Of a stretch of 64,000 nucleotides of DNA, positions 2,711 through 26,272 are shown one piece after another; the first letter of the stretch is position 1, and every line of letters begins with the position of its first letter. The DNA comes from a virus: IMG/VR virus record IMGVR_UViG_3300020392_000005; one strand, given 5' to 3'. The notes under the pieces were generated by a model. The model was not told the origin of the DNA, searched no databases, and was given only the letters and a program-made list of their open reading frames with translations. Both the position numbers and the translations under genes were made by a program.

Positions 2711-3166
2711 TTACACTAATTTAGCGTAAACCTTTGATGAACCGTTAGACAATGTTTCAAACTTAACCTCTAATTTCAAGTTATCAATTCCAGGACCATT
2801 ATCTACTACCACATCTTCAGGTTTAGTTTCAGTTGTTTTACCATATGTACCACCGAATTGTTTTACTTCAGCAGTAACCGTACCAGCGTCACCTTCTAAT
2901 TTAACAGGACTAATATCTAATCCTATTCTCATTAGATTTTCTCTTAATTTGTCAACTGCGTATTGTGGTTTAATGTATTCCATATCGGCTACACTACCTA
3001 CAAAAGCATTAACTCTTTTAAGAACGCTTGGGTCTTTCAAATTTGCTGTTCCTAATGAACCATCTTCAACTGCATTACTTGTAGAAGTACCAGTTGTAGC
3101 GGCACCATATTTGATAGCATTTGATTTCACATTGCCTTCTTTTAAATGTTCTTTAAAAGTTTTCAT
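2711..3166 (-). CDS. Hypothetical protein with capsid-targeting-like leader MKTFKEHLKE
   Basis: ORF track; GGAG RBS; leader resembles T4 internal-protein CTS. Confidence 0.65.
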   Translation of the reverse strand: MKTFKEHLKEGNVKSNAIKYGAATTGTSTSNAVEDGSLGTANLKDPSVLKRVNAFVGSVADMEYIKPQYAVDKLRENLMRIGLDISPVKLEGDAGTVTAEVKQFGGTYGKTTETKPEDVVVDNGPGIDNLKLEVKFETLSNGSSKVYAKLV

Positions 3167-5439: not shown

Positions 5440-5744
5440 TACACTTGATAGTCTATTTTAGGGTTTACTTCTACCTTATCTGACTTTGTTTTGTTATCTG
5501 TTAATTTCTTTTCAGGTGCCTTTGATTTAATGTCTAAAGGGTCTTTCTCTACTGCATTTTTAGGTAGAACCGTATCACCAGAATGGTCTTCTTTCTTTGC
5601 TCTTAATTTTGCAAGGTCAGAACCATCTATTTTACCGTTCTTGTTAACATCTAATTTCTTTTGTTTAGGTGTTAACTTTTCATTTACTTTAGAGATTGCG
5701 TCTTCTAACGAACCTGGTTTAATATCTAAATATCTTTTTCCCAT
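5439..5744 (-). CDS. Small protein with EF-hand-like loop (DVNKNGKIDGSD), probable internal-head protein
   Basis: DxNxxGxIDxxD motif after a VNE site. Confidence 0.6.
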   Translation of the reverse strand: MGKRYLDIKPGSLEDAISKVNEKLTPKQKKLDVNKNGKIDGSDLAKLRAKKEDHSGDTVLPKNAVEKDPLDIKSKAPEKKLTDNKTKSDKVEVNPKIDYQV

Positions 5745-7903
5745 TATTTACTTCCTCTAACTTTCTTTGCTAAATCTTTATCTGCACCGCCCCAAGTACC
5801 ACTTGATTTGGTTACAAAAGAGTTTACTCTAGCAAGTGCCCATTGTTGTTGTGTAGCACCTGGTCTATGACCACCTTTCCACGCAGCCATTCCTCTATCA
5901 TAAACTTTCTTTAAAATAGAATACGGCATACCTGTCTTATCAGCTTTGTTTCTTACTGCTTTAATACTTTCATAAGTCATTTTAGCAGGATGATTTTTGT
6001 TTTCTACTTTCATTTTTTTCTTTACCATATTAGTTGCGGTACCGTATCTTACATCATCGCCTTTTTCTTTACCATATCTATCTCTAAATGATTTCTTTGG
6101 TAAGTCATCAGCAACTTTGTGTACCATTTTTATTTGTTTTTTAGATAGGTCAGCTTCAGTTTTAAGTGCCTTCTCTAAATCTTTTGCTTGTTTAGTATGT
6201 GCCTTAACTGCACCTTTCAATTGTTTGATAACATCTTTTACAGCAGGTTTATCTTTACTATCTAAATCTTCTTTCTTCATTTCTTTGTCTCTTAATAATT
6301 TGTTTGCGAGACCTATTGATAATGGTACCTCACCTGTATCTGGATTAGGTTCAGGTTTTACAGCTTTATTCTTTTCTATTTCTAATTTCTGTTTAAGTAA
6401 TGCGACTTGGTCTTTTAGAGCAGCGATACTCTCTTTAGATTTATCTTCTTTCTCTTTAGACTTATCTTCGTCTTTACCTTTTAACATATCTTTTAATTTC
6501 ATTTTTTCCTCTGGTTCTTGTTCTTGTTCAAACATACTACCAAATATTCTAGCGTATGGGTCTCTTGCATATAAGTGACCGCCGTGTGTATCAAATCTAG
6601 TTTTTAACTTATTCATAAAGTCTTTGTTGGTTACATTACCTCTTGCACCTTTGGCAGGAGCATTAACACCAGCAGGTTTAAATAAGTCACCTGTATTCTT
6701 ATCTATGAAAGCGTGTATACTTCTCTTCTGTCCGTTTTCTGTATCGTGTATCTTAATGTATTTAGGACCTACCGTTTTCATTAAATCTCTTTTTTGTTTT
6801 GCATAAAGACCTTTGAAACTAGGATGATTTTTAATCTTGTCTTGTCCTATCTTAATGTAATCATCAACGCCTTTCATTACGGCAGCGTTTTCTGCTACAT
6901 ATTCTTCTTTCTGCATAACTCTTACATCATCGCCAAACTTTGCGACAACTTGTTTGTGTATGTTCTCTATATCTTTTGCACTATCAACTCTTACTTCTGA
7001 ACCAGAAGCTGATAGTTCACCACCACCAATCTTACCTTTAAACATATTGGCAACTTGTTTTGCTTGTGATGAGTTCTTACACATATATTCAATGTATTCT
7101 GCATATTCTTTTAATTCGTTTTCTTCTCTAATTCTTACATAAAATCTATTGTTAAATGGTGATTGATAACCGTCTGCTTTAGCACCTTTGTTTGATTGCA
7201 TATAAGCACTAGCGGCATTTCTTGCCATTGTCATATTAGGATAAACCTTATCTAAAACTTTTGTACCATTTCTTAATTTCATAGTCTCTTCTTTAGTAGG
7301 TTTCATACCTTGTTTTTTTAATCTGTCTATGTCTGCTTCTGACGGAGCGTTCTCATTAGTTTCTGTATTATTATCTTTATAGTCGTCTGTCTTTTTCTTT
7401 TGAATACCTTTAGCGCCGTGGTCACTAGTATGTGTTTCTGTAATCTCTTCCCAAGATTTATTTTCAAAAGCAGATAACTTAACTCCTTTAGGTACTTGAA
7501 TACCTTTCTGTATCATACGACTAGCAGCCATCGCTGAAAGAAAAGGAATGTCTGCTTTGTAAAGTTTAGGTAGTTGTGAATTTGTAATTTTGTCAAAGAT
7601 GTTTCTTAATTGATTAGCTCTTGCAAGTGAAATTCTTGCACCTTTAAGTCCTGAATATTCTTTTTTAAGTTTCTGTATTTGTGCGTCTGTAAACTCCCAC
7701 AACATACTTTCAGGTAAGTCTTCCTCACCTAGTATTGACTTAACCGTAGACAACGGAAGTTTCATCTTCTTTGCTATCTCTTCAGGTGATGAACCACCTG
7801 CGAACATAGTGGCAATTGTTTTCATCTTACCTTCGTCTAGCTGTATATCGTTTGCCCAGACTTCAGCGATTGCTTCTGCCATTGTCTTTTTGTATCTTGT
7901 CAT
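5744..7903 (-). CDS. Large modular protein, C-terminal DUF5824-like domain; probable gp21-processed internal-head polyprotein
   Basis: C-terminal KVYDRGMAAWKGGHRPGATQQQWALARVNSF; many x-x-E boundaries. Confidence 0.6.
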   Translation of the reverse strand: MTRYKKTMAEAIAEVWANDIQLDEGKMKTIATMFAGGSSPEEIAKKMKLPLSTVKSILGEEDLPESMLWEFTDAQIQKLKKEYSGLKGARISLARANQLRNIFDKITNSQLPKLYKADIPFLSAMAASRMIQKGIQVPKGVKLSAFENKSWEEITETHTSDHGAKGIQKKKTDDYKDNNTETNENAPSEADIDRLKKQGMKPTKEETMKLRNGTKVLDKVYPNMTMARNAASAYMQSNKGAKADGYQSPFNNRFYVRIREENELKEYAEYIEYMCKNSSQAKQVANMFKGKIGGGELSASGSEVRVDSAKDIENIHKQVVAKFGDDVRVMQKEEYVAENAAVMKGVDDYIKIGQDKIKNHPSFKGLYAKQKRDLMKTVGPKYIKIHDTENGQKRSIHAFIDKNTGDLFKPAGVNAPAKGARGNVTNKDFMNKLKTRFDTHGGHLYARDPYARIFGSMFEQEQEPEEKMKLKDMLKGKDEDKSKEKEDKSKESIAALKDQVALLKQKLEIEKNKAVKPEPNPDTGEVPLSIGLANKLLRDKEMKKEDLDSKDKPAVKDVIKQLKGAVKAHTKQAKDLEKALKTEADLSKKQIKMVHKVADDLPKKSFRDRYGKEKGDDVRYGTATNMVKKKMKVENKNHPAKMTYESIKAVRNKADKTGMPYSILKKVYDRGMAAWKGGHRPGATQQQWALARVNSFVTKSSGTWGGADKDLAKKVRGSK

Positions 7904-8199
7904 TTTTTTTCCTCGTATTCTTTAATGTCTATTATTAATCTACCTTCACCTTTGTGTAATCTATGATACACCATTTTAGGTATATAATACTCACTACCTA
8001 CTTTTAACTCTTCAGGCAACTGATTATCCATTTGAAGTTTCCAATTAACACCAGAGACAATCTTAATCTTTCTATCTAACTTGTCTCTATGCCAAATTAG
8101 TTCTTTGTCTTCAATGTCATTATTGAAAACTCTCTGGTGTATACCATTTGTTTTAAAATCAGTATACGGTTTACCAAAAGAAGTTTCCACCATTGCCAA
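7900..8199 (-). CDS. Small cupin-like conserved phage protein
   Basis: ELIWHRD...WKLQMDN..P...IPK..YHR..KG pattern; start uncertain. Confidence 0.6.
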   Translation of the reverse strand: MAMVETSFGKPYTDFKTNGIHQRVFNNDIEDKELIWHRDKLDRKIKIVSGVNWKLQMDNQLPEELKVGSEYYIPKMVYHRLHKGEGRLIIDIKEYEEKK

Positions 8200-8707
8200 G
8201 TCCTAAACTCTTTGCATATCTAGGCAAATTACAAGCCCAATATGACGCCTTTGTTTTATCCTTTTGACTAGCACATCTATGTCTAGCTGCAAAGGACTTT
8301 CTAGCTTTGGGGTCGTTTAGTTTCACTTTCAATCCTGTTGTATCTCCCCAAGTCACCTTCTTAATCTTATCGCCGTCTTTGACGAATACATAAAACTTTT
8401 TAGGTCCACCTCTTTTAGGTTTGTTCAAAGGAGGATTCTTTTCCTCTTCTGCAATCGGTATATCTAAAGGCACATTTTGCTCTTCGTATATACCAAACTC
8501 ACCTATATCAGTTGATAGTAATTCTCTATCCCAAGCACTATCTACTTCTAATAGACCTTCATTATACATATCTCTTGCCTCTCTAAACAAGGCATAAAAT
8601 TCTTCACTATGAATACGATAGATGTTATTCGCTAGAGGTATGTTATTCTCTATGTGATAATGCAACGACTTCGTTATCTTTTCTGCGTAATCACTAAATC
8701 TTAACAT
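8171..8707 (-). CDS. DUF6321-like protein
   Basis: LNKPKRGG.KKFYVFV...ARKSFAARHRC...YWAC; MLRFSDYAE leader. Confidence 0.65.
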   Translation of the reverse strand: MLRFSDYAEKITKSLHYHIENNIPLANNIYRIHSEEFYALFREARDMYNEGLLEVDSAWDRELLSTDIGEFGIYEEQNVPLDIPIAEEEKNPPLNKPKRGGPKKFYVFVKDGDKIKKVTWGDTTGLKVKLNDPKARKSFAARHRCASQKDKTKASYWACNLPRYAKSLGLGNGGNFFW

Positions 8708-11636
8708 ACTCTTTAAACGATTGCACTTTCAACCGTTCCTCCATCTTTTTCACAGCTTCGTCAATCTCTTTTTGATACTCTTCGCCGTATCGTTTCTTAT
8801 ATTTATCAATAGTCTCACTTGAAGCAGCCCACTCTTTTATATCTTCTGTGGTAATCTTCTCTGGTGCTTGTTCAGCACGCTTTTTAGTGTCTACTGATTT
8901 CTCATTTGGCGTCTGTCCAGGCGTGATTTCTTTAGTATGATTGGCATAATCAGCACCTATTTCGTATGCTTCTTTGCCGTACATCTGGTTAAATTTCTTT
9001 GTGTGTTTAGATGTTTTAGTCTTTGCACCTTTATCACCTGGGGCAGCTTTGTAATCACTATCTTTGTCTGATTTACTATACTTCTGTTTAGAGAAATGAC
9101 TTGCTCTCTTTTCTTTTTCACCTTTTTTCAAATCTTTATAGTATTTTTTAGGTTGTGTTCCGTCTTTCTTTTTGACATCTTTATCTTGTGGTAACTTCTT
9201 ACCATATGCTTCTTTTAGTTTCATATCTATTTCTTTCTCGGACATAGCTTCAAAACCATAATCTACATTTAAATCGTGTTCGTGTATTCTAACTTCATCT
9301 ACTTGTGGTGTAGGAATACAATCCCATATCCAACATTTGTGTAAGTTAGAATTGTTATCTTCTAATACAATGTAATTTGTTCCTCTTCTTACTACTTTAC
9401 CAGAAACATCTTGTTTTTGGTCTTCAACTATATCGTCTTGTTTAAATAATTGTTCTCTTATGTAAAGGTCTCTTACCTGCCATTGAGTAAAGTTTTCAAT
9501 AGAAGATATAGGTTTCATAGTACCTAATCCGTGAGATTGCATATTCGCTTGTAAGTTCATACCTTTTCTAACTAGACCAAACAACTTCTGTTTGTCTCTA
9601 AATGAAGTAGGTAATCCTCTTTGAAAAGATTTAAAATCATCTTTTGCGGCTGCGTCTCTCATCTTACTTGCACTCATACCTGTTGCACCTTCAGCGTCTG
9701 GGTCTCTTTCGCCAGCACTTACAACATTAATTTTATCGTACTCGTAATCAGTACCTCTTGCCTTTACGCCGTTATATCTGTTTAGTAGTGTTTCAAATTC
9801 TCTTACTCTATCTGAACCAACTACCATTGTTATTTCGTTTGCTTTACCATTTAGTTTATTGATAACTTCAATCGCTGTTCTAGCGCCAGGTATTTGTTTT
9901 ATCTTACTAGCATATCTAGGAAACATTGATTTCATAATTCTAATTTTGTCATCAACTTTTAATGGATTCTTTTTACTATCAAAAGAACCACTAGGTACTA
10001 TAATAAAATCATTTGCACCTACACTCGCAACTTTATTAATAAGTTTTTCGTGTCCTATTGTTGGTGGATTAAATCTACCAAAGGTAAATGCAATATGTTT
10101 TTTAGGTGTACCTGTTGCTTCTTTTAAACTATCTATTTCTCTATCTGTTATATTACCATCATCTAAAATATCTTTACACTTCTTATAGAATTTTAAGTAA
10201 TGGTATTTCTCTAACATTTTATAGATAACATTTTTAGGAAGTTTGTGTTTCTTACCAAACTCTCTAATTTCTTCTGGCGACATATCACTTTGAAATGCAG
10301 CTTGTCTGTCTTGTATAACTTGGTCGCCTGTATCAATGATAGATTGTATACTATCTTCAATCTCATCTAATTTATTTCTTATCATAGATTGTAGATTGTC
10401 AACATCATCATTTGATAATCCTCTTAATTCTTTGTAATCAATTATATCTCTTACTAGTTCGCCTTTGACAACATCTAACTCCATAACTTTCTTACCGAAG
10501 TCGTCCATATATTTGTCTTTGTCAAACTCTTCTTTCTCTGGTCTTCTGACAAACTTATTATTCTCTACATCAAATACGCCATCTGCCATACTATCATTTT
10601 TCTCTTTGACAGCAGGGTCTACTATTACAAAATAATTGATTGGGTGTTTAGTACCTGGTACTAGTTTACCATTTACATCTTTTAAGTTCTTTCTTAATGC
10701 CTCTAACGCAGCTTCTCTTTCTTCTTCTTTGACATCAAACAATATATTAATATCTAAATCTGCGTCTTCTCTATATCTCTTTGTTAAGATAGAACCGATT
10801 AATGAATACTTTTTGATTGGGTGATATTGTGCAAATTGTTTTAGTTGTGCGTCTATCATATCTTTCACAACTTTTTTTAATTTAGGATTGTTTGTTTCTG
10901 CGTCATCAAATACGCCAGGTGCATATCTCTTTCTAGGAATATCTATAATACTTTCCTGAATATTAACCATATTGATTAATTTTTTAGCAATCTTAACACT
11001 TTCCTCGTGGTCAGAAGGATAATGCCAACCTGCAATAACTCTTCCATAACCACACTCGTCAGCAAGTTCAATAAGATTATCTTTATGTTTAGGATATAAT
11101 TTACCATAGTATTCTGCAAGTAATCTACTTTGCAAACTATGACCTGATGGATACGCAGGAGTTTTCATAGTATCAGAAATTAATTCCATACTATCAAACT
11201 TTAAATTCATTGCGTCTGCAAGTTCATATGGTCTAGGTCTTTGAAATTTATTCTTGTAATATCTAACAACACCACTACCTGCTTTTTTAATCTCGCTTAT
11301 ATCACTATCTTTGTATTCTAAATTGTTTTCATCTAGGTATTTTTTTATACCATAAAAAGTTTCTTGGTCGTGGTTCTCTACACTTTTTTCTATATCACTA
11401 TTTCTACTCTTAAATAGTTCTATCATAGTGTTCATTTCATCTTTAGTTTCAGGACTATCGTTCTCTGGTGGCGTCTCTACATCAATATCTTTCCAGTTAC
11501 CATCTATATTCTGTACAGGTTTAGGTTCTACTTTAGGGTGTGTCAAATCATTTAGGTCTTCGTCAACCATCTTCTTTCTTTTAAGAAGTTCTTTCACATA
11601 GTTTCTATAATATGCGTTTTGAAAATTATCTGGCAT
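8694..11636 (-). CDS. Multidomain enzyme: PAP2/haloperoxidase-type phosphatase + pol-beta-type nucleotidyltransferase + HIGH cytidylyltransferase-like domain + basic tail
   Basis: K..FQRPRP / PAYPSGH / GRVIAGWHYPSD; GSILTKRYREDADLDI; FGRFNPPTIGH...VVGSDR...MSASKMR. Confidence 0.75.
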   Translation of the reverse strand: MPDNFQNAYYRNYVKELLKRKKMVDEDLNDLTHPKVEPKPVQNIDGNWKDIDVETPPENDSPETKDEMNTMIELFKSRNSDIEKSVENHDQETFYGIKKYLDENNLEYKDSDISEIKKAGSGVVRYYKNKFQRPRPYELADAMNLKFDSMELISDTMKTPAYPSGHSLQSRLLAEYYGKLYPKHKDNLIELADECGYGRVIAGWHYPSDHEESVKIAKKLINMVNIQESIIDIPRKRYAPGVFDDAETNNPKLKKVVKDMIDAQLKQFAQYHPIKKYSLIGSILTKRYREDADLDINILFDVKEEEREAALEALRKNLKDVNGKLVPGTKHPINYFVIVDPAVKEKNDSMADGVFDVENNKFVRRPEKEEFDKDKYMDDFGKKVMELDVVKGELVRDIIDYKELRGLSNDDVDNLQSMIRNKLDEIEDSIQSIIDTGDQVIQDRQAAFQSDMSPEEIREFGKKHKLPKNVIYKMLEKYHYLKFYKKCKDILDDGNITDREIDSLKEATGTPKKHIAFTFGRFNPPTIGHEKLINKVASVGANDFIIVPSGSFDSKKNPLKVDDKIRIMKSMFPRYASKIKQIPGARTAIEVINKLNGKANEITMVVGSDRVREFETLLNRYNGVKARGTDYEYDKINVVSAGERDPDAEGATGMSASKMRDAAAKDDFKSFQRGLPTSFRDKQKLFGLVRKGMNLQANMQSHGLGTMKPISSIENFTQWQVRDLYIREQLFKQDDIVEDQKQDVSGKVVRRGTNYIVLEDNNSNLHKCWIWDCIPTPQVDEVRIHEHDLNVDYGFEAMSEKEIDMKLKEAYGKKLPQDKDVKKKDGTQPKKYYKDLKKGEKEKRASHFSKQKYSKSDKDSDYKAAPGDKGAKTKTSKHTKKFNQMYGKEAYEIGADYANHTKEITPGQTPNEKSVDTKKRAEQAPEKITTEDIKEWAASSETIDKYKKRYGEEYQKEIDEAVKKMEERLKVQSFKEYVKI

Positions 11637-12303
11637 TGCTTCTCTTTAATTGTAGTTCTTTTTCTATCCACTTTTTCGCTACATAATTTTGTACAGGAAC
11701 ACTAATTAATCTCCTTACTTGTTTAAATACTTTTAATAGTTCATCTTCTTTTGCGTCATTGTTATCAACGACTATCATATTTCTCATACCAAACATATTT
11801 TGAAATCTACCGATATTATTTTGTACGGTTTGCCAACTCTTTCTAGTAATATCTTCTGGCACGCTTCTAGTTCTAATTCTATTTCTTTGTAATGCAACTT
11901 CTAAACTAGTGTTTACAAATATCATATAAGTGTCATAACCTAACATCTGTAGCATACTTCTTTGTTTATTAATTACATTATAATCTCTACCTGTTGCGTC
12001 TATAACTAAACCTAGTCTACCTCTAATGTATCTGTCCATCTGGTCGCCTGTAATCTGTTTTGCTCTTTGTCTCAATGGGTCTCTAGCACTTGCTTCATTA
12101 TCAGGCATTTTCAATGATAGACCTGCTTTCTTTAGATACATTTCAAATCTTGTATCAGAATTAACCATCTTTAAACCTAATCCTAAAGTTGTTCTATTGG
12201 TTACATAAGTCTTACCAGAACCAGGACCACCTGCAAGAAAAAATGCTTTGAATATTCCTGGGTCGTAAACACCTTCTTGTATTATAGATTTAAATTGTTT
12301 CAT
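11626..12303 (-). CDS. P-loop kinase (zeta-toxin/polynucleotide-kinase-like)
   Basis: GGPGSGKT, LVIDATG, ALQRNRIR lid; MKQFKSIIQE leader. Confidence 0.75.
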   Translation of the reverse strand: MKQFKSIIQEGVYDPGIFKAFFLAGGPGSGKTYVTNRTTLGLGLKMVNSDTRFEMYLKKAGLSLKMPDNEASARDPLRQRAKQITGDQMDRYIRGRLGLVIDATGRDYNVINKQRSMLQMLGYDTYMIFVNTSLEVALQRNRIRTRSVPEDITRKSWQTVQNNIGRFQNMFGMRNMIVVDNNDAKEDELLKVFKQVRRLISVPVQNYVAKKWIEKELQLKRSNAR

Positions 12304-12590
12304 ACTTTATATAGAGTATACTTTAAAGTTATCTCTTCTCCTTTTTTAATATCTTTTAATGTTTGCACATAAAACTTACCATCAACTTCTATCTTCTGTA
12401 CATTTGGTTTATCACTATGATTTATGAAACCACCTAGTGGCGTTCTATATAATTCTCTTCCATAGTTCAACCAACCTATACCCAAGTCTGTCCACTTGTC
12501 AATCTTCTTTGTTGCGAAAACTCCGTAACCTTCTATGGGCGATAACTTTAGTGTCAAATTATCAGGCAAAGGTCTATACTTATCTGTCAT
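12300..12590 (-). CDS. Minimal SET-domain protein (putative lysine methyltransferase)
   Basis: GYGVFA...GGFINHSDKPN...IKKGEEITLKY. Confidence 0.8.
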   Translation of the reverse strand: MTDKYRPLPDNLTLKLSPIEGYGVFATKKIDKWTDLGIGWLNYGRELYRTPLGGFINHSDKPNVQKIEVDGKFYVQTLKDIKKGEEITLKYTLYKV

Positions 12591-12894
12591 CTCCGCTACC
12601 GTGTATCTTGTCCTCTTCTAATCGTTTCTGTAATTTAAATATATTAGATTGTGCTACATCATCTAATCGTATATCTAAATCGTTTGCTAATGCACTAACA
12701 TACCATAGTACATCACCTAATTCTTTTTTAATATCTTCTTTTGAGAAAGTGTTACCGTCTCTCATATTCTTTTTAATTTTATCTGCAACTTCGCCAACTT
12801 CTGAACAAAGTCCTATCATAGGATAAGTTATCTTATCTTTTGCAGGATAAACTGCTGATGATATACTTAATGCTTGATAATCATTAAAGTTCAT
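12580..12894 (-). CDS. mazG: MazG-like NTP pyrophosphohydrolase
   Basis: GLCSEVGEV...ELGDVLWY...N..KL..R...GSGDDR. Confidence 0.85.
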   Translation of the reverse strand: MNFNDYQALSISSAVYPAKDKITYPMIGLCSEVGEVADKIKKNMRDGNTFSKEDIKKELGDVLWYVSALANDLDIRLDDVAQSNIFKLQKRLEEDKIHGSGDDR

Positions 12895-13468
12895 TTTGTA
12901 TCTCCTTTATAATATCTTTCGCAATATCACCAGGCTCTTTTCCTTGTGCCTTAATACTAACAAAGCCTGGTTGTCTTTTGAAGTAATCAATCGCTGGACC
13001 TGTTTCTTTTTTATACAAGGCAATTCTATCAGATATAATATCTGGTTTATCATCGGCTCTTCCTCTCTTTGTCAATCTTCTAATTACTTCTTCTTTATCC
13101 ACATCTAAAAATACAACAACATCATAACCTATGCCAAACTTTTCCATATCTCTAACTTGTTGCATATATCTAGGATAACCATCTAGTACATAACCTTTTG
13201 TTGCACTTGCAACTTCTTTTCTAATAAGTTTTAAAACTATATCGTTAGGTGCAAACTTACCTTGGTCTAATAAATTCTTAATCTTCTGACCATCAGGACC
13301 ACCTTTGTCAATTTCTTTTCTCAATAAACCACCTGGGTATATGTGTTTGATACCAAAGTGTCTAATGATGTATTCAGAATAGGTTGACTTACCTGAACCA
13401 GGACCACCCATAATGACTACACGAACCATCTTGGCTTCTTTTAAAAAATTAACAAATGTCTGTACCAT
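12884..13468 (-). CDS. adk: Adenylate kinase (short, LID-less type)
   Basis: GGPGSGKST, G.LLR, LDGYPR, RGRADD. Confidence 0.85.
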   Translation of the reverse strand: MVQTFVNFLKEAKMVRVVIMGGPGSGKSTYSEYIIRHFGIKHIYPGGLLRKEIDKGGPDGQKIKNLLDQGKFAPNDIVLKLIRKEVASATKGYVLDGYPRYMQQVRDMEKFGIGYDVVVFLDVDKEEVIRRLTKRGRADDKPDIISDRIALYKKETGPAIDYFKRQPGFVSIKAQGKEPGDIAKDIIKEIQNEL

Positions 13469-13502
13469 TCTTTCTCCTGTTTCTGTTTCTAAAAAAATCT
13501 TT

Positions 13503-13634
13503 CTATCCTATTAAATACATTATTAAAATACCGATTGCTAATCCTTCTAACCACGCCAGATATACTGACTTCAAAGGATGCTCGTGTATGAAATTAAACT
13601 TCCAGTCTAATATTTCTTTTATAAATTTTTTCAT
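13503..13634 (-). CDS. Small membrane protein, 43 aa (MKKFIKEILDWKFNFIHEHPLKSVYLAWLEGLAIGILIMYLIG)
   Basis: Hand-translated; ATG overlaps upstream TAA; hydrophobic C-terminus. Confidence 0.6.
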   Translation of the reverse strand: MKKFIKEILDWKFNFIHEHPLKSVYLAWLEGLAIGILIMYLIG

Positions 13635-14851
13635 TATCCTTTTACCCAATCTTTTGCGATAGTAAAGTTTGCTCTACTAAACTCTAATCTATCTACTAGT
13701 TTGACTACATTACCTATCTTATCTGTAGCAACAAATCCTTCAGGTGCGGTAACTCTATAACCACTATCAGTTCTAATAAAGTGACCAACACTTTGTATCT
13801 GTGCTAACTTCTGCAATATTGTATTCTTCGCTGTTTGCAAAGTCATATATGTTGCGATAGAAAAATATAGTGCTTGTTTGTTTCTATCAATAAATTTTAA
13901 ATTGTTATCTTTTGCATTTATATATTTCTCTTTACCTCTAGCAGTTTTCTTACTATCTATTTCTGCTTGTATAAAGTTCTCATAGTAATCTCTAAATCTA
14001 TCTTGTAATGTTCTAACACTACCCATACCACCTTTACTATCTCTAATGACAGAATTGAAAAATGTCTTTAGTCTGAAACCAACTGACAACTGGTCATTAC
14101 TATCAAATAGATTTAACAAAGGTCCTGCCTTCTGTAAACTACCTTCTGCCATTCTTAATTGTGCATTAAACTTAGCAACTTCTGCTCTACTCATTGTTGC
14201 ACTACCACTAGTATCTTTGTATTGTGCCGATGGTACGAATACACTAGCAGAATTGATACCTCTTACATAACCGAAACTTGCATTTAAACTATCCATTGCA
14301 TTACCATTATATTGAGTATGAAATACAATACCTAGTCTTGCTCTTGCAACTTTTCTACCAGCGCTACTATCAACTGGTAAAGCATATGTAATTGTGTTAG
14401 GTGTAAAAGAAATCATAGATTGACCATCTATGTTTACTACTTTCTTTTCTTCACTAGTAAATAATAAATCGCCTTGTAAGATACCTCTTATACCTAACTT
14501 TTTTAATTCTCTTAAACAGACTTGAAGTTTAGACGCAACAGGACCACTATGGTTTCTGTTTATGTCTGAAACGGTATAATTGATTTTGGGAGTTCTATTG
14601 AATACAGATTTTGTTCCAACAAAGAATTTGTTGTTTTCAGGATTGATACCACAAACTATGGCAGGTGCACCGTCCCATTTAACGGTTACATTTACTTTCT
14701 TGCTTGAGTTACCTACAAGCATTTTTTGTAAAGACTTTAAAAATGCAATCGCATTTCTACCACCTTTAGCGCCGTCATTTATAATACTATCTTCTAAATG
14801 CTCTAGGTGTGTGTTCGTACCTGAGCTTGAATATCCTTTAAAACTAAACAT
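13634..14851 (-). CDS. DUF6267-family protein, possible ATP-dependent ligase-type nucleotidyltransferase
   Basis: HLEHLED, TVKWDGAP, QGD, PEGFV, VKLVDR. Confidence 0.7.
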   Translation of the reverse strand: MFSFKGYSSSGTNTHLEHLEDSIINDGAKGGRNAIAFLKSLQKMLVGNSSKKVNVTVKWDGAPAIVCGINPENNKFFVGTKSVFNRTPKINYTVSDINRNHSGPVASKLQVCLRELKKLGIRGILQGDLLFTSEEKKVVNIDGQSMISFTPNTITYALPVDSSAGRKVARARLGIVFHTQYNGNAMDSLNASFGYVRGINSASVFVPSAQYKDTSGSATMSRAEVAKFNAQLRMAEGSLQKAGPLLNLFDSNDQLSVGFRLKTFFNSVIRDSKGGMGSVRTLQDRFRDYYENFIQAEIDSKKTARGKEKYINAKDNNLKFIDRNKQALYFSIATYMTLQTAKNTILQKLAQIQSVGHFIRTDSGYRVTAPEGFVATDKIGNVVKLVDRLEFSRANFTIAKDWVKG

Positions 14852-14918: not shown

Positions 14919-14926
14919 TATTTATA
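14919..14926 (-). promoter_or_regulatory. T4-type late promoter TATAAATA heading the enzyme block
   Basis: Exact consensus. Confidence 0.8.
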
Positions 14927-19453: not shown

Positions 19454-19769
19454 CAGCCTGTTTCGCTCTTAACACAACTTTTCTACCAGTAGAAATGCCT
19501 TCGCCTTCTATCCGATATTGTTCATCTTTGGGAACCCAACTTGCTGGTGGTTCTTCGTACTCTTCTGGTGGTATTCTATCCCAAAGGTGTTGACCAAAGT
19601 CGCTAGGTGCAACCTCACCATATTGAGTATTGAACATACGGCCATCAAACTTATGTGCCATTTCAAATATCTTTTCTTTATTGTATGCAACTTTCCGTTG
19701 ATAATCGTAATAAGGTTTTAAGTCGCTTTCGTATTCTGATTTTTTTATCATTTCTCTCCGTTGTGTCAT
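19443..19769 (-). CDS. Hypothetical protein
   Basis: ORF track; ATGA overlap with upstream gene. Confidence 0.6.
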   Translation of the reverse strand: MTQRREMIKKSEYESDLKPYYDYQRKVAYNKEKIFEMAHKFDGRMFNTQYGEVAPSDFGQHLWDRIPPEEYEEPPASWVPKDEQYRIEGEGISTGRKVVLRAKQAVDK

Positions 19770-21019
19770 AGAAAACTTTCCAATGTCGCTCTTCTGCTTG
19801 AAGAGAAGAAGTCGTAATCTTTAGGACCAAAACACCATACATTTTCAATATACTTCATTGCCATAAATTTATTCAGTTCTTCTTTGGTCTTAAACTTTGC
19901 ATTACCTTGAGGTCTTTGCATAATGACCATACCAATCTGACCTATGAATTTGTCTCTATTACTATTTATTAATTCATCACTTGACCTGTATCGTACATTT
20001 TTGACTTTCGGATCCATTATATTTACTAACATAAATTTAGATTTAGAAAGTGTCTTTTCTGCGACAGGTAAATAGAAGTCATCACGCCATCTTTCATATT
20101 CATTAAATTTAAACCAAGATTGATTTTCTTCTAGTTCACCACCTTTATTATATTCTTCTGTACTAAAATAAGGCGGACTTGTAAACGCACAATCTATATC
20201 TGGTAACTCATCATAAGGTAAATTTTCTGCACCACAATTGTATATCTTAACTTTCTTATTAGGAAAGAATTTACTATACTCTTCAATCTGTTTCATATAT
20301 TGTTTATATGTGTTAGGGTTTGGGTCACAACCATAATATTCAGTTGCATTACTAGCAAAGAAACCTGCAAGTCTATCACCCCAACCACAAGAGGTATCTA
20401 ATACGGTGTTCGCTTTTGTCATATCATATATTGTCTTCGCAACGACAGGTTTAAATTGTGTTGCAATATATGTACCTAATCTAAAGGCACTCATATATGT
20501 ACCTTCTCTTAAATGTCTTTCAGTATTAATGCCACGCCATATAGGACCTAGACAACGCCATACATCTTTTGCGTCACCATTATTCCACACATCAATAGGT
20601 GCTTTGAAACCATAACTACTACAATTCAATCTTAAATGTTGATGAAAGTAATTAGATGATACATTGTATATTGAAGGAGCGTCTATGATACCTAGACCAT
20701 AATCTTTAAAGTTATATTCGTAATCATCATACTTCTCAAATACTTCTTTCTCTATCTGTTCTTTAGGTGTACAGATTTTAGATGTATCAAACTTACTTAA
20801 ATCAATTATATTCTTTCTCATATCTGCATATGATATTTGTTTCAAAGGAAACTTCGGTCTTTCATTTGCGATATATTGAGACAACAAAACTCTAAATTGT
20901 TCTTTGCCTAACTCTTCTGTCCATCTATCAAACTGGATAGTGTCCATTATAGGCAAACCGTTTTCGTCTGCGTAATCTTTAAGATTTAAGGTCGTATTCA
21001 AAGTTATAACTCGTTTCAT
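19766..21019 (-). CDS. Amino (N4-C/N6-A) DNA methyltransferase
   Basis: VLDTSCGWGDRL SAM motif, FTSPPYF catalytic motif. Confidence 0.8.
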   Translation of the reverse strand: MKRVITLNTTLNLKDYADENGLPIMDTIQFDRWTEELGKEQFRVLLSQYIANERPKFPLKQISYADMRKNIIDLSKFDTSKICTPKEQIEKEVFEKYDDYEYNFKDYGLGIIDAPSIYNVSSNYFHQHLRLNCSSYGFKAPIDVWNNGDAKDVWRCLGPIWRGINTERHLREGTYMSAFRLGTYIATQFKPVVAKTIYDMTKANTVLDTSCGWGDRLAGFFASNATEYYGCDPNPNTYKQYMKQIEEYSKFFPNKKVKIYNCGAENLPYDELPDIDCAFTSPPYFSTEEYNKGGELEENQSWFKFNEYERWRDDFYLPVAEKTLSKSKFMLVNIMDPKVKNVRYRSSDELINSNRDKFIGQIGMVIMQRPQGNAKFKTKEELNKFMAMKYIENVWCFGPKDYDFFSSSRRATLESFL

Positions 21020-24784: not shown

Positions 24785-26272
24785 TTATTTTTTCTTTTTG
24801 TCAATAGGTGGTAACCTTTTACTTAATACAAAAGTCCTGTTAGGATTAACAGACGCATTGAACATACGGATAACTTCTCTATTAAGTAATACATCGGACC
24901 TCGCCCTAGGTCTTTGGTCTAGTCCAAATTCTATATCTTTATATGTGAAACCATTAAAGGTTAAATCTAATAGTACGGTAGTTCTTACTTCTGATGGTTC
25001 GTCTCCTTCTGCGTTTGCTCTAAACACTCTGGACTCCCCGTACTTCGGTGCCGAATATTTTTTGCCATTGTAGTTCCAAGTTACCGTTTTACCATTTACT
25101 TTGATATCTTCGGCGTGCATTGAACAAGCGTGAGCACCGTTACCTGTATCCATCTTCGCTCTAATCTTACCTATGTCACCAACTTCAATAGTCTCTAACC
25201 AACCTACCTCTTGTAGTGATTGTCTATCCCAGTTGTCTCTATCTATGACATACTTAACAAAATTCTTAACAAGTTGCTTACCTGATATTGCACCCCCAGG
25301 TGTAGGTCCTTGTAAATCTTTATATAGATAACCTTCGTAATCTGCACCAGTACCTGGCGAACCATTTACTTCTAATAGATAATGTTTACCATCGTGGATT
25401 ATATGGTCAACTCCTACTAGGTATGCTTTACTTACTCTACTTGCTTTTAATACTAATTCAATCTCTTCTTCACTTAACTTATAAGGTTTCGCTTCTGCAC
25501 CTCTATGAGTATTAGTTCTAAAGTCAAATGATGATTGTATTCTTTTTGTACTTGCAAATATCTTATTGTCTACCACGAAAGTTCTTACATCAAACTTAAC
25601 AGGCATAAATTCTTGTATCAACAATTCAGCACCGTGTTTCCATAATGCCTGAATAGTAGATACTAGGGATTCATAACTATCTAATTTTACAACACCAATA
25701 CCTTGCGTTCCTGTTAGAGTTTTTAAGACAACAGGAAACTTATTACCTATTAGTTTCATTGCGTCATCTATATTCTTCTCGTTAGAAACGAAAGCAGTTC
25801 TAGGTGTAGGTATACCAAACTTCTCAAATAATAGAGCAGTTGTCAATTTGTTATTACAAGTTAACATAGCGTTTCTAGTATTACACATAAACGCACCTGA
25901 ATTTTGAAAGGCAGATATAATTGATAATCCACTTTCATCTTCTACTGCACCTGCTCTGGTAACACAAACGGTATCTTTACCTATAAATGTATGTTCAGTA
26001 TCTTTACCATCATAGTTATAGATTGTTAGAGTATTCTTCTCTTCGTCTTTACCTGTAATGATAGCGTGTCTAGTTTCAATAACTACACACTTGATATTTA
26101 ATTCTTCGCAAGTATCGTTAATAAGTTTTACGGTAAGTTCTTTGTCTTCTTTACCACCGACTTTTCTCTTTTTTAAATTAGGATTAGTCTTGGTAACAAC
26201 GGCAATCGTAATTGGTTTGCCTTCTCGTTCAACCTTTTCTGTTATGAAATCTTTAAACTTTGGTACTTGCAT
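24785..26272 (-). CDS. rimK: RimK-type ATP-grasp ligase fused to a C-terminal RimB-like (retropepsin-like) protease
   Basis: GTQGIGV, LLIQEF, DFRTN.HRG, GVD, LEVNGSPG; then VGW.E, AKMDTG, VLLNR. Confidence 0.8.
   Translation of the reverse strand: MQVPKFKDFITEKVEREGKPITIAVVTKTNPNLKKRKVGGKEDKELTVKLINDTCEELNIKCVVIETRHAIITGKDEEKNTLTIYNYDGKDTEHTFIGKDTVCVTRAGAVEDESGLSIISAFQNSGAFMCNTRNAMLTCNNKLTTALLFEKFGIPTPRTAFVSNEKNIDDAMKLIGNKFPVVLKTLTGTQGIGVVKLDSYESLVSTIQALWKHGAELLIQEFMPVKFDVRTFVVDNKIFASTKRIQSSFDFRTNTHRGAEAKPYKLSEEEIELVLKASRVSKAYLVGVDHIIHDGKHYLLEVNGSPGTGADYEGYLYKDLQGPTPGGAISGKQLVKNFVKYVIDRDNWDRQSLQEVGWLETIEVGDIGKIRAKMDTGNGAHACSMHAEDIKVNGKTVTWNYNGKKYSAPKYGESRVFRANAEGDEPSEVRTTVLLDLTFNGFTYKDIEFGLDQRPRARSDVLLNREVIRMFNASVNPNRTFVLSKRLPPIDKKKK

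Follow-up and report, generated by a model that had tools for sequence, protein, structure and literature searches.

The DUF6267 locus of a marine T4-like phage

We analyzed a 64,000-nucleotide (nt) stretch of viral DNA (IMG/VR record IMGVR_UViG_3300020392_000005; hereafter the window, numbered from its first letter), in which a late-expressed run of genes is headed by a gene for a protein of the DUF6267 family (PF19782), predicted here to be a divergent member of the ligase superfamily. The window is part of the genome of a marine T4-like myovirus: every long open reading frame (ORF) lies on the minus strand, and it encodes the replication proteins gp43 polymerase, UvsX and gp41 helicase along with the head and packaging proteins gp17, gp18, gp20, gp21 (protease), gp22 (scaffold) and gp23 (capsid protein). 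A megablast search with the region recovered no match, and hence no near-identical phage, among deposited phages. At the protein level the closest relative of the window DUF6267 is that of Pelagibacter phage HTVC008M (54% identity), followed by those of hundreds of cyanomyoviruses. PADLOC returned nothing relevant on the window, and a search of a protein atlas retrieved only unnamed viral clusters.

The segment 8694-14851, with all genes on the minus strand, extends from the ATG of the DUF6267 ORF (14851) to the stop of a 980-amino acid (aa) ORF (8694). Six closely spaced genes, whose start and stop codons overlap, make up the segment, and the first of them encodes the 405-aa DUF6267 protein (13634..14851; Pfam 1.9e-122). 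A 43-aa ORF with a hydrophobic, membrane-type C-terminus (13503..13634), whose ATG overlaps the DUF6267 stop (TAATG), fills the apparent 165-nt gap before the next gene, and a comparable ORF was found in two related loci. This is followed by an adenylate kinase (Adk; 12884..13468; ADK 2.6e-37) with an 11-13-residue N-terminal extension ending FLKE, then AK; a 104-aa MazG-type NTP pyrophosphohydrolase (12580..12894; MazG 6.1e-14); a minimal 96-aa SET-domain protein with an NHS motif (12300..12590; Pfam SET 4.3e-12); and a 225-aa P-loop kinase (11626..12303; AAA_33 6e-13, Zeta_toxin 1.4e-9) with the leader MKQFKSIIQE before G. The 980-aa protein, which closes the segment, combines a PAP2 phosphatase domain (aa ~60-228; 10953..11459; PAP2 3.4e-8), a pol-beta-type minimal nucleotidyltransferase (NTase) with a helical region (aa 241-506; 10119..10916; NTP_transf_2 2.1e-5, Polbeta 3e-4), a HIGH-motif adenylyltransferase (HIGH NTase) domain (aa 507-715; 9492..10118; CTP_transf_like 5.2e-8), and a small conserved beta-rich domain (aa 716-809) with a Lys-rich tail (aa 810-980, weak DUF5824 match; together 8694..9491). 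Further downstream on the same strand are a 178-aa protein of phrog_7595 (8171..8707), which travels with the set, and a 719-aa DUF7717/DUF5824 protein (5744..7903), probably the end of the same late unit.

An initial annotation of this segment, made from the sequence alone, had listed most of these enzymes, and all the domains that it named are present by Pfam, with the catalytic motifs of the PAP2, pol-beta NTase and HIGH NTase domains intact. However, it treated the latter three as separate genes when they are domains of one ORF, and it missed the SET gene and the 43-aa membrane ORF in the same run. Its claim that DUF6267 heads an operon is borne out: a T4-type late promoter, TATAAATA (14919..14926, minus strand), lies 68 nt upstream of the DUF6267 ATG, with the overlapping genes following downstream. 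Each of the eight copies of this motif in the window is on the coding strand, and gp21 and gp22 are among the genes preceded by one. For comparison we surveyed 80 related loci retrieved from IMG/VR with the window proteins (counts out of 44 or 42 below refer to loci with enough flanking sequence). The motif is found 44-163 nt upstream of DUF6267 in 33 of 75 related loci, as against 2.8% of background windows; in front of gp41, the kinase, Adk or the pol-beta NTase it was found in none of these loci. Since the motif precedes DUF6267 in the window and in many of its relatives, DUF6267 heads a late unit, and the best explanation of the run is a single late transcription unit of a pelagimyophage-type marine T4-like phage, reaching from 14926 to 8171 or beyond.

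Sequence motifs and predicted fold of DUF6267

The DUF6267 family comprises 2,673 representatives at 50% identity clustering, with matches in 466 deposited phage genomes, and we found no mention of it in the literature searched. The ordered motifs of covalent nucleotidyltransferases reported in the initial annotation are located as claimed: motif I (K58-W-D-G61), motif III (Q126-G-D128), motif IIIa (I175-V-F-H178), motif IV (E371-G-F-V374) and motif V (V383-K-L-V386). An alignment of 73 family members sharing 34-85% identity has K58, D60, G61, D128, G174, H178, T179, E371, G372 and K384 as invariant residues; because the ligase-like motifs fall on these invariant columns, they constitute the conserved core of the family rather than chance strings. 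The assignment holds for motifs I, III, IV and V, but that of the IIIa strand is uncertain, with both IVFH and the strand bearing the invariant Y156 being candidates. In the AlphaFold model (pLDDT 89, pTM 0.85) the motifs map to beta strands, with D128 on strand 124-132, F177/H178 on 173-182, E371-G372 on 372-376 and K384 on 382-386.

The family shows several distinctive features. Motif I lacks the Arg of KxDGxR and is preceded by an invariant, His/Asp-rich HLEHLED element (H15, H18, E20, D21). A helical insert of five helices and ~130 residues (aa ~222-350) separates motifs IIIa and IV, so that motifs IV and V lie at the extreme C-terminus and the protein ends ~20 residues past motif V. The OB domain with motif VI, which is a feature of gp30-type DNA ligases, is absent in DUF6267, the helical insert being its sole extra module.

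Structure searches with the model consistently pointed to ligases. In an exhaustive VIA-align search, ligases occupied the first 16 of 16 non-helical rows, with Z-scores of 8.0 for NgrRnl, 7.2 for REL1, 7.1 for Trl1, 6.4 for Rnl2, 6.1 for Rnl3 and 6.0 for Rnl1, and at most 5.9 for DNA ligases. In a second search, which re-scored the top 1000 Foldseek rows, the best 50 rows were all ligases (Z 8.2-5.6) and RNA ligases took ranks 1-22: Naegleria NgrRnl (Rnl5) at 8.2 (184 aa), REL1 at 7.4, Rnl1 at 7.3, Trl1 at 7.1 and Rnl2 at 6.5, with DNA ligases at 5.6-6.2. In a library of predicted viral structures, the first annotated matches from outside the family were RNA ligases of phages and giant viruses, and no DNA ligase was among the matches. 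The sole sequence-level ligase signal came from two of the 73 members, which reach PF09511, the Pfam family of T4 Rnl1, at 6e-4. No member matched PF09414, and in a scan of all 73 that admitted E values up to 10, PF01068 (DNA_ligase_A_M) was outside the 25 most-matched families. Searches of PDB sequences with phmmer and profiles gave only chance coiled-coil matches, and hhalign of the family profile against the single Rnl1, Rnl2 and gp30 sequences of Vibrio phage EniLVp02 gave probabilities below 1%. The comparison with Rnl1 and Rnl2 suggested in the initial annotation has thus yielded a ligase-superfamily fold with RNA ligases closest, and on the strength of the model and the invariant motifs DUF6267 very probably belongs to the covalent nucleotidyltransferase superfamily.

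The nick-sealing, ATP-dependent RNA ligases NgrRnl, trypanosome REL1 and T4 Rnl2, whose alignments with the model in the second search span 167-193 residues, share with DUF6267 the KxDG lysine nucleophile, the order of motifs III, IV and V, and the lack of both an OB domain and the motif I Arg. DUF6267 differs from them in having no detectable sequence similarity, in a motif V with one Lys (VKLVDR) instead of KxK, in the HLEHLED element before motif I, and in the position of its helical module, which is inserted between IIIa and IV, whereas theirs are appended N- or C-terminally. We class DUF6267 as a predicted new domain architecture within the ligase superfamily, in a putatively packaged setting (see below).

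Three further observations concern the extent of the family. In the viral structure library the DUF6267 model also matches a 971-aa "SET domain-containing protein" of an uncultured virus (E 8e-3, probability 0.97), and SET may sometimes be fused into the same polyproteins as DUF6267. In cyanophage S-PM2 (NC_006820, 6013-7792) RefSeq splits DUF6267 into p141 (the N-terminal half) and p142 (the C-terminal half with the cytidyltransferase), whereas the structure library has one undivided S-PM2 protein of 591 aa that spans the model in full (TM 0.93); this split is probably an annotation or sequencing artifact, or due to an unannotated intervening element. EniLVp02 (Straboviridae), which encodes gp30, Rnl1 and Rnl2, also codes just after gp41 for a 360-aa hypothetical protein (5959-7041) with weak similarity (25.8%) to DUF6267 aa 32-180, which may represent a distant branch of the family.

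Conservation, synteny and domain fusions

The related loci separate a conserved pair from more variable neighbors. The HIGH NTase is encoded on the same strand within 5 kb downstream of DUF6267 in 40 of 44 loci, and its C-terminal beta-rich domain is present in 36 of them. Lower counts were obtained for the 719-aa DUF7717/DUF5824 protein (23/44), the pol-beta NTase (22/44), the kinase (19/44) and the 178-aa protein (18/44), and lower ones still for Adk (11/44), SET (2/44) and PAP2 (1/44; about four loci overall). The position is likewise stable, with gp41 upstream in 39 of 42 loci, i.e. at a site just downstream of gp43-UvsX-gp41. Fusions of DUF6267 to the HIGH NTase occur in both orders in many representatives; the kinase is fused to DUF6267 once (P0236), with a kinase part 50% identical to that of the window, and a domain like the 178-aa protein is fused N-terminally to it once (P0209). 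A complex prediction for DUF6267 with the HIGH NTase gave no verdict (score 0.00).

HTVC008M shows the order DUF6267, a 170-aa protein, the kinase and the HIGH NTase with DUF5824, and cyanophages show MazG upstream, DUF6267, and then the "cytidyltransferase". A pelagimyophage survey reported mazG as absent from the group and adk as an auxiliary metabolic gene (PMC7029224). The gene order of the window is therefore atypical for both pelagimyophages and cyanophages, as MazG is present and lies downstream of DUF6267.

Given the locus counts and the repeated fusions, the conserved system consists of DUF6267 and the HIGH NTase, to which the kinase and the pol-beta NTase have been added at the level of lineages; Adk, MazG, SET and PAP2 are variable accessories of the window phage and a few relatives. 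The operon proposed in the initial annotation thus survives the comparison in part: the pair is conserved, and synteny and one fusion link the kinase to DUF6267, but Adk, MazG, SET and PAP2 do not form part of a conserved system. We also considered a strict complementarity between DUF6267 and the gp30 ligase; it was rejected, since Stenotrophomonas phage DLP6 has both.

Partner enzymes

The PAP2 domain of the 980-aa protein retains its motifs (Kx6RP at 128-136, PSGH at 163-166 and GRx5Hx3D at 198-209, with G for S in the third) and is the only phosphatase in the unit; a HAD (DxDxT) 3'-phosphatase domain of the T4 Pnk type is absent. The pol-beta NTase has an intact GS-x10-DLD motif at 281-295; its domain profile gave only chance helical matches against PDB sequences, which do not separate a PolX-like from a minimal-NTase-like affinity.

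The HIGH domain has an intact TIGH (526-529) and SASKMR (655-660). Its model (pLDDT 74 overall, about 90 in the core) finds Rossmann-like adenylyltransferases, namely archaeal NMNAT (Z 12.5), NaMNAT (12.4), PPAT (12.4) and NadM (12.1), which are tied in both fold searches. The label "NMNAT-like" of the initial annotation is therefore a fair one by fold and motifs, but PPAT is equally close and NMN is not singled out as a substrate. This domain is the pelagiphage counterpart of a cyanophage core gene, the "cytidyltransferase" (T4-GC190). It differs from the NMNAT and PPAT enzymes in being embedded in a 980-aa protein with PAP2 and the pol-beta NTase, and in having the extra beta-rich domain and the Lys-rich tail. 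The DUF5824-like tail recurs at the end of HIGH NTase proteins.

The kinase matches phrog_12810 at 2e-45, phrog_505 ("polynucleotide kinase") at 3e-7 and the RNA-ligase PHROGs weakly, and the zeta toxin is its sole match in the PDB. Of the earlier description as "PNK/zeta-like", the AAA_33/zeta part stands, but the PNK profiles are weaker than those of zeta and AAA_33. The 178-aa protein has a basic C-terminal half and gave no match against PDB sequences.

Predicted packaging in the phage head

A 10-11-residue leader of the form MxxFxx[FY][LI]xE is present on about 40 of the 73 DUF6267 proteins, and capsid-targeting-like leaders are also found on stand-alone HIGH NTases. Of the Adk orthologs 12 of 14 bear an N-terminal extension, and 23 of 24 kinase orthologs have [LI]xE before G ahead of the conserved core. 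In the window the Adk leader ends FLKE11 before AK and that of the kinase IQE10 before G. In the 980-aa protein, [LI]xE sites with a small residue after them lie at the domain borders (226-228, 504-506 and 807-809), and the 504-506 site is conserved in fused relatives. The same type of site, LSE before AA, is found at the expected maturation position of the window gp23, and the gp21 protease and gp22 scaffold are encoded in the window. These leaders are comparable to the gp21-cleaved capsid-targeting sequence of the T4 internal proteins and Alt, which we take to be MKTYQEFIAE and hence of the same form, with leaders of 10-14 residues on family members, Adk and the kinase, and with the late promoter as a further shared feature. 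The cargo differs in that T4 heads are not known to contain nucleotide and nucleic-acid enzymes of this kind.

In cyanophages the HIGH NTase homolog T4-GC190 has been detected in virions (PMC3037559), and kinases and cytidyltransferases are often detected there (PMC10665884). Together with the leaders and gp21, these published virion data lend support to the earlier suggestion that the set is delivered with the DNA, and we infer that it is packaged in the head of the window phage.

Certain other ORFs of the window (all on the minus strand) have comparable starts. A 151-aa ORF with no Pfam match (2711-3166) begins with MKTFKEHLKE before G, the closest of the window leaders to that of the T4 internal proteins, and may by its sequence be an injected internal protein. 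A leader, MTRYKKTMAEAIAE before V, is also present on the 719-aa DUF7717/DUF5824 protein, and a 495-aa fusion of a RimK-like ATP-grasp ligase to Zn_protease (24785-26272), just downstream of gp43, has the leader-like start MQVPKFKDFITE. A 417-aa ORF between gp43 and UvsX (19766-21019) shows a weak match to N6_N4 DNA methylases (3e-4).

Functional interpretation

We favor, at roughly even chances, the interpretation that the late unit encodes a head-packaged and injected enzyme set, headed by a divergent polynucleotide ligase of the RNA-ligase lineage, which heals and seals ends. The enzymes would be packaged in the head alongside the phage DNA and reach the host cell together with it. Lys58 of DUF6267 would take AMP from ATP and pass it to a 5'-phosphate end, following which the attack of a 3'-OH would seal the break; the helical insert is predicted to replace the usual C-terminal nucleic-acid-binding domain. 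The partner that appears obligatory across the family would be the NMNAT/PPAT-like HIGH adenylyltransferase. Of the remaining enzymes, the P-loop kinase might phosphorylate 5'-OH ends, the pol-beta-type NTase might add nucleotides to 3' ends, PAP2 might, in the lineage of the window phage only, remove 3'-phosphates, and adenylate kinase might recycle the AMP. Broken ends of nucleic acids would thereby be healed and sealed by the set as soon as infection begins. The end-healing logic of the initial annotation has gained from the linkage of the kinase to DUF6267 by synteny and one fusion and from the intact motifs of the PAP2, pol-beta and HIGH domains, and such an injected heal-and-seal kit is plausible. 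The counter-defense, tRNA repair, NAD rescue and alarmone destruction considered for it are guesses by comparison, with no result linking the set to a host defense.

A precedent is presented by the RNA heal-and-seal systems T4 Pnk plus Rnl1, fungal Trl1 and bacterial Pnkp/Hen1, in which a ligase-fold enzyme is likewise tied to a P-loop kinase. Here the two are joined in one fusion of the type known from Trl1 and Pnkp, the window phage also encodes a phosphatase, and Rnl1 and Trl1 are themselves among the fold matches of DUF6267. However, the phosphatase is PAP2 instead of the HAD (T4 Pnk), 2H/CPD (Trl1) or calcineurin-type (Pnkp) domains, the kinase is zeta/AAA_33-like with weak matches to PNK profiles, and nothing in those systems corresponds to the HIGH adenylyltransferase, the conserved partner. 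The window set also differs in being late-expressed and apparently head-packaged; to our knowledge T4 pnk and rnlA are not packaged.

Several observations weigh against this interpretation. Foldseek of the DUF6267 model against the PDB gave no row at E <= 0.001, so that the ligase fold signal came solely from VIA-align and the viral structure library, and a Z of ~8 is just at the level that VIA-align deems trustworthy. The role of the HIGH NTase, the most conserved partner, is not accounted for by a heal-and-seal scheme. The kinase is no closer to PNK than to the zeta toxin, which phosphorylates a small molecule. The usual substrates of PAP2 enzymes are lipids or small phosphate esters, and few relatives have a PAP2 domain. 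With respect to packaging, the leader pattern is not specific, as it is matched by five of 87 window ORFs, including UvsX and two other ORFs. Further, the window DUF6267 itself starts MFSFKGYSSSGT and, unlike the T4 internal proteins and Alt, has no [LI]xE cleavage site, as is also the case for its closest relatives; its own packaging is therefore doubtful.

As to the substrate, we lean modestly towards RNA or RNA-containing nicks over DNA, leaving a small share for something else. On the RNA side are the order of the fold matches, the lack of an OB domain and of the Arg after motif I, the Trl1/Pnkp-like kinase-ligase fusion, and phage DLP6, which holds a gp30-type DNA ligase alongside the full DUF6267 and HIGH NTase pair (PMC5349666). 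On the DNA side, the gene lies beside replication genes, head-packaged enzymes travel with the DNA, and the tested Kyanoviridae have no other ligase: HTVC008M, S-PM2 and P-TIM40 lack PF01068, and HTVC008M and S-PM2 lack PF01653, which leaves DUF6267 as their only ligase-superfamily gene. A review notes that cyanomyoviruses lack gp30 and that this absence is unexplained (PMC2984593). On a less likely reading, the DNA ligase that is "missing" from marine T4-like phages would be DUF6267, sealing replication or packaging nicks in phage DNA or breaks that arise in virion DNA in sunlit water or through host nucleases, and the kinase, phosphatase and pol-beta NTase would form a PNKP/PolX-like set for DNA end-processing. 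DNA ligases do figure among the fold matches, but RNA ligases outscore them in three fold searches. The coexistence of DUF6267 with a gp30-type ligase in DLP6 indicates that the two are not interchangeable there, and a replicative ligase would be expected to be expressed early or in the middle phase, yet DUF6267 lies behind a late promoter.

Less probable still is that the set is a nucleotide or cofactor kit rather than one for nucleic-acid repair. The HIGH NTase would then make NAD+ (or dephospho-CoA), the kinase would, like that of NadR, have a nucleoside or cofactor precursor as its substrate, and Adk and MazG would tune the nucleotide pools, with DUF6267 using or sensing the product, for instance as an adenylyltransferase that depends on NAD+ and releases NMN for recycling by the fused partner. 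The closeness of the HIGH domain to NMNAT/NaMNAT/NadM/NadR and PPAT speaks for such a kit, as does the presence of Adk and MazG in the same unit; NadR-type proteins join a HIGH NMNAT with a P-loop kinase, the fusions of DUF6267 and the HIGH NTase in both orders would fit substrate channeling, and the invariant His/Asp-rich element before motif I may be counted in its favor. However, NMNAT and PPAT are tied as matches of the HIGH domain, Adk and MazG are missing from most relatives, the genes scanned in the window, itself only part of a genome, include neither NAMPT nor another gene of NAD salvage, and the kinase-ligase fusion and the best fold matches of DUF6267 point to polynucleotide ends.

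Similarly improbable is the absence of any joint function, with independently acquired late or auxiliary genes accumulating in a variable region downstream of gp41 and DUF6267 being a ligase-fold protein with another role (e.g. protein or small-molecule adenylylation, or a structural head component): only DUF6267 and the HIGH NTase are conserved, other members differ between loci, MazG lies upstream instead in cyanophages and adk has been treated as an auxiliary metabolic gene (PMC7029224), but against this stand the repeated fusions of DUF6267 to the HIGH NTase, the kinase and the p178-like domain, the overlapping start and stop codons throughout the run with one shared late promoter and shared leaders, and the strict invariance of the catalytic residues.

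Implications for marine T4-like phages

Returning to the packaged heal-and-seal set, its most far-reaching form, which we consider unlikely, is that DUF6267 might be the long-sought ligase of the dominant marine T4-like phages, thought to be ligase-less: an enzyme of new architecture, packed in the head with its adenylyltransferase partner and end-healing enzymes, which upon injection would mend breaks in the incoming genome or in host-cut nucleic acids before phage gene expression.

The pair of DUF6267 and the HIGH NTase is near-universal in marine T4-like phages. If DUF6267 is indeed a ligase-superfamily enzyme, this would provide a testable function for a core gene in viruses that rank among the most abundant on Earth, reopen the statement that cyano- and pelagimyophages lack a ligase, and add a new domain architecture to the superfamily. 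If the packaging of the set also holds true, the heads of T4-like phages could deliver a whole enzyme kit, beyond single internal proteins.

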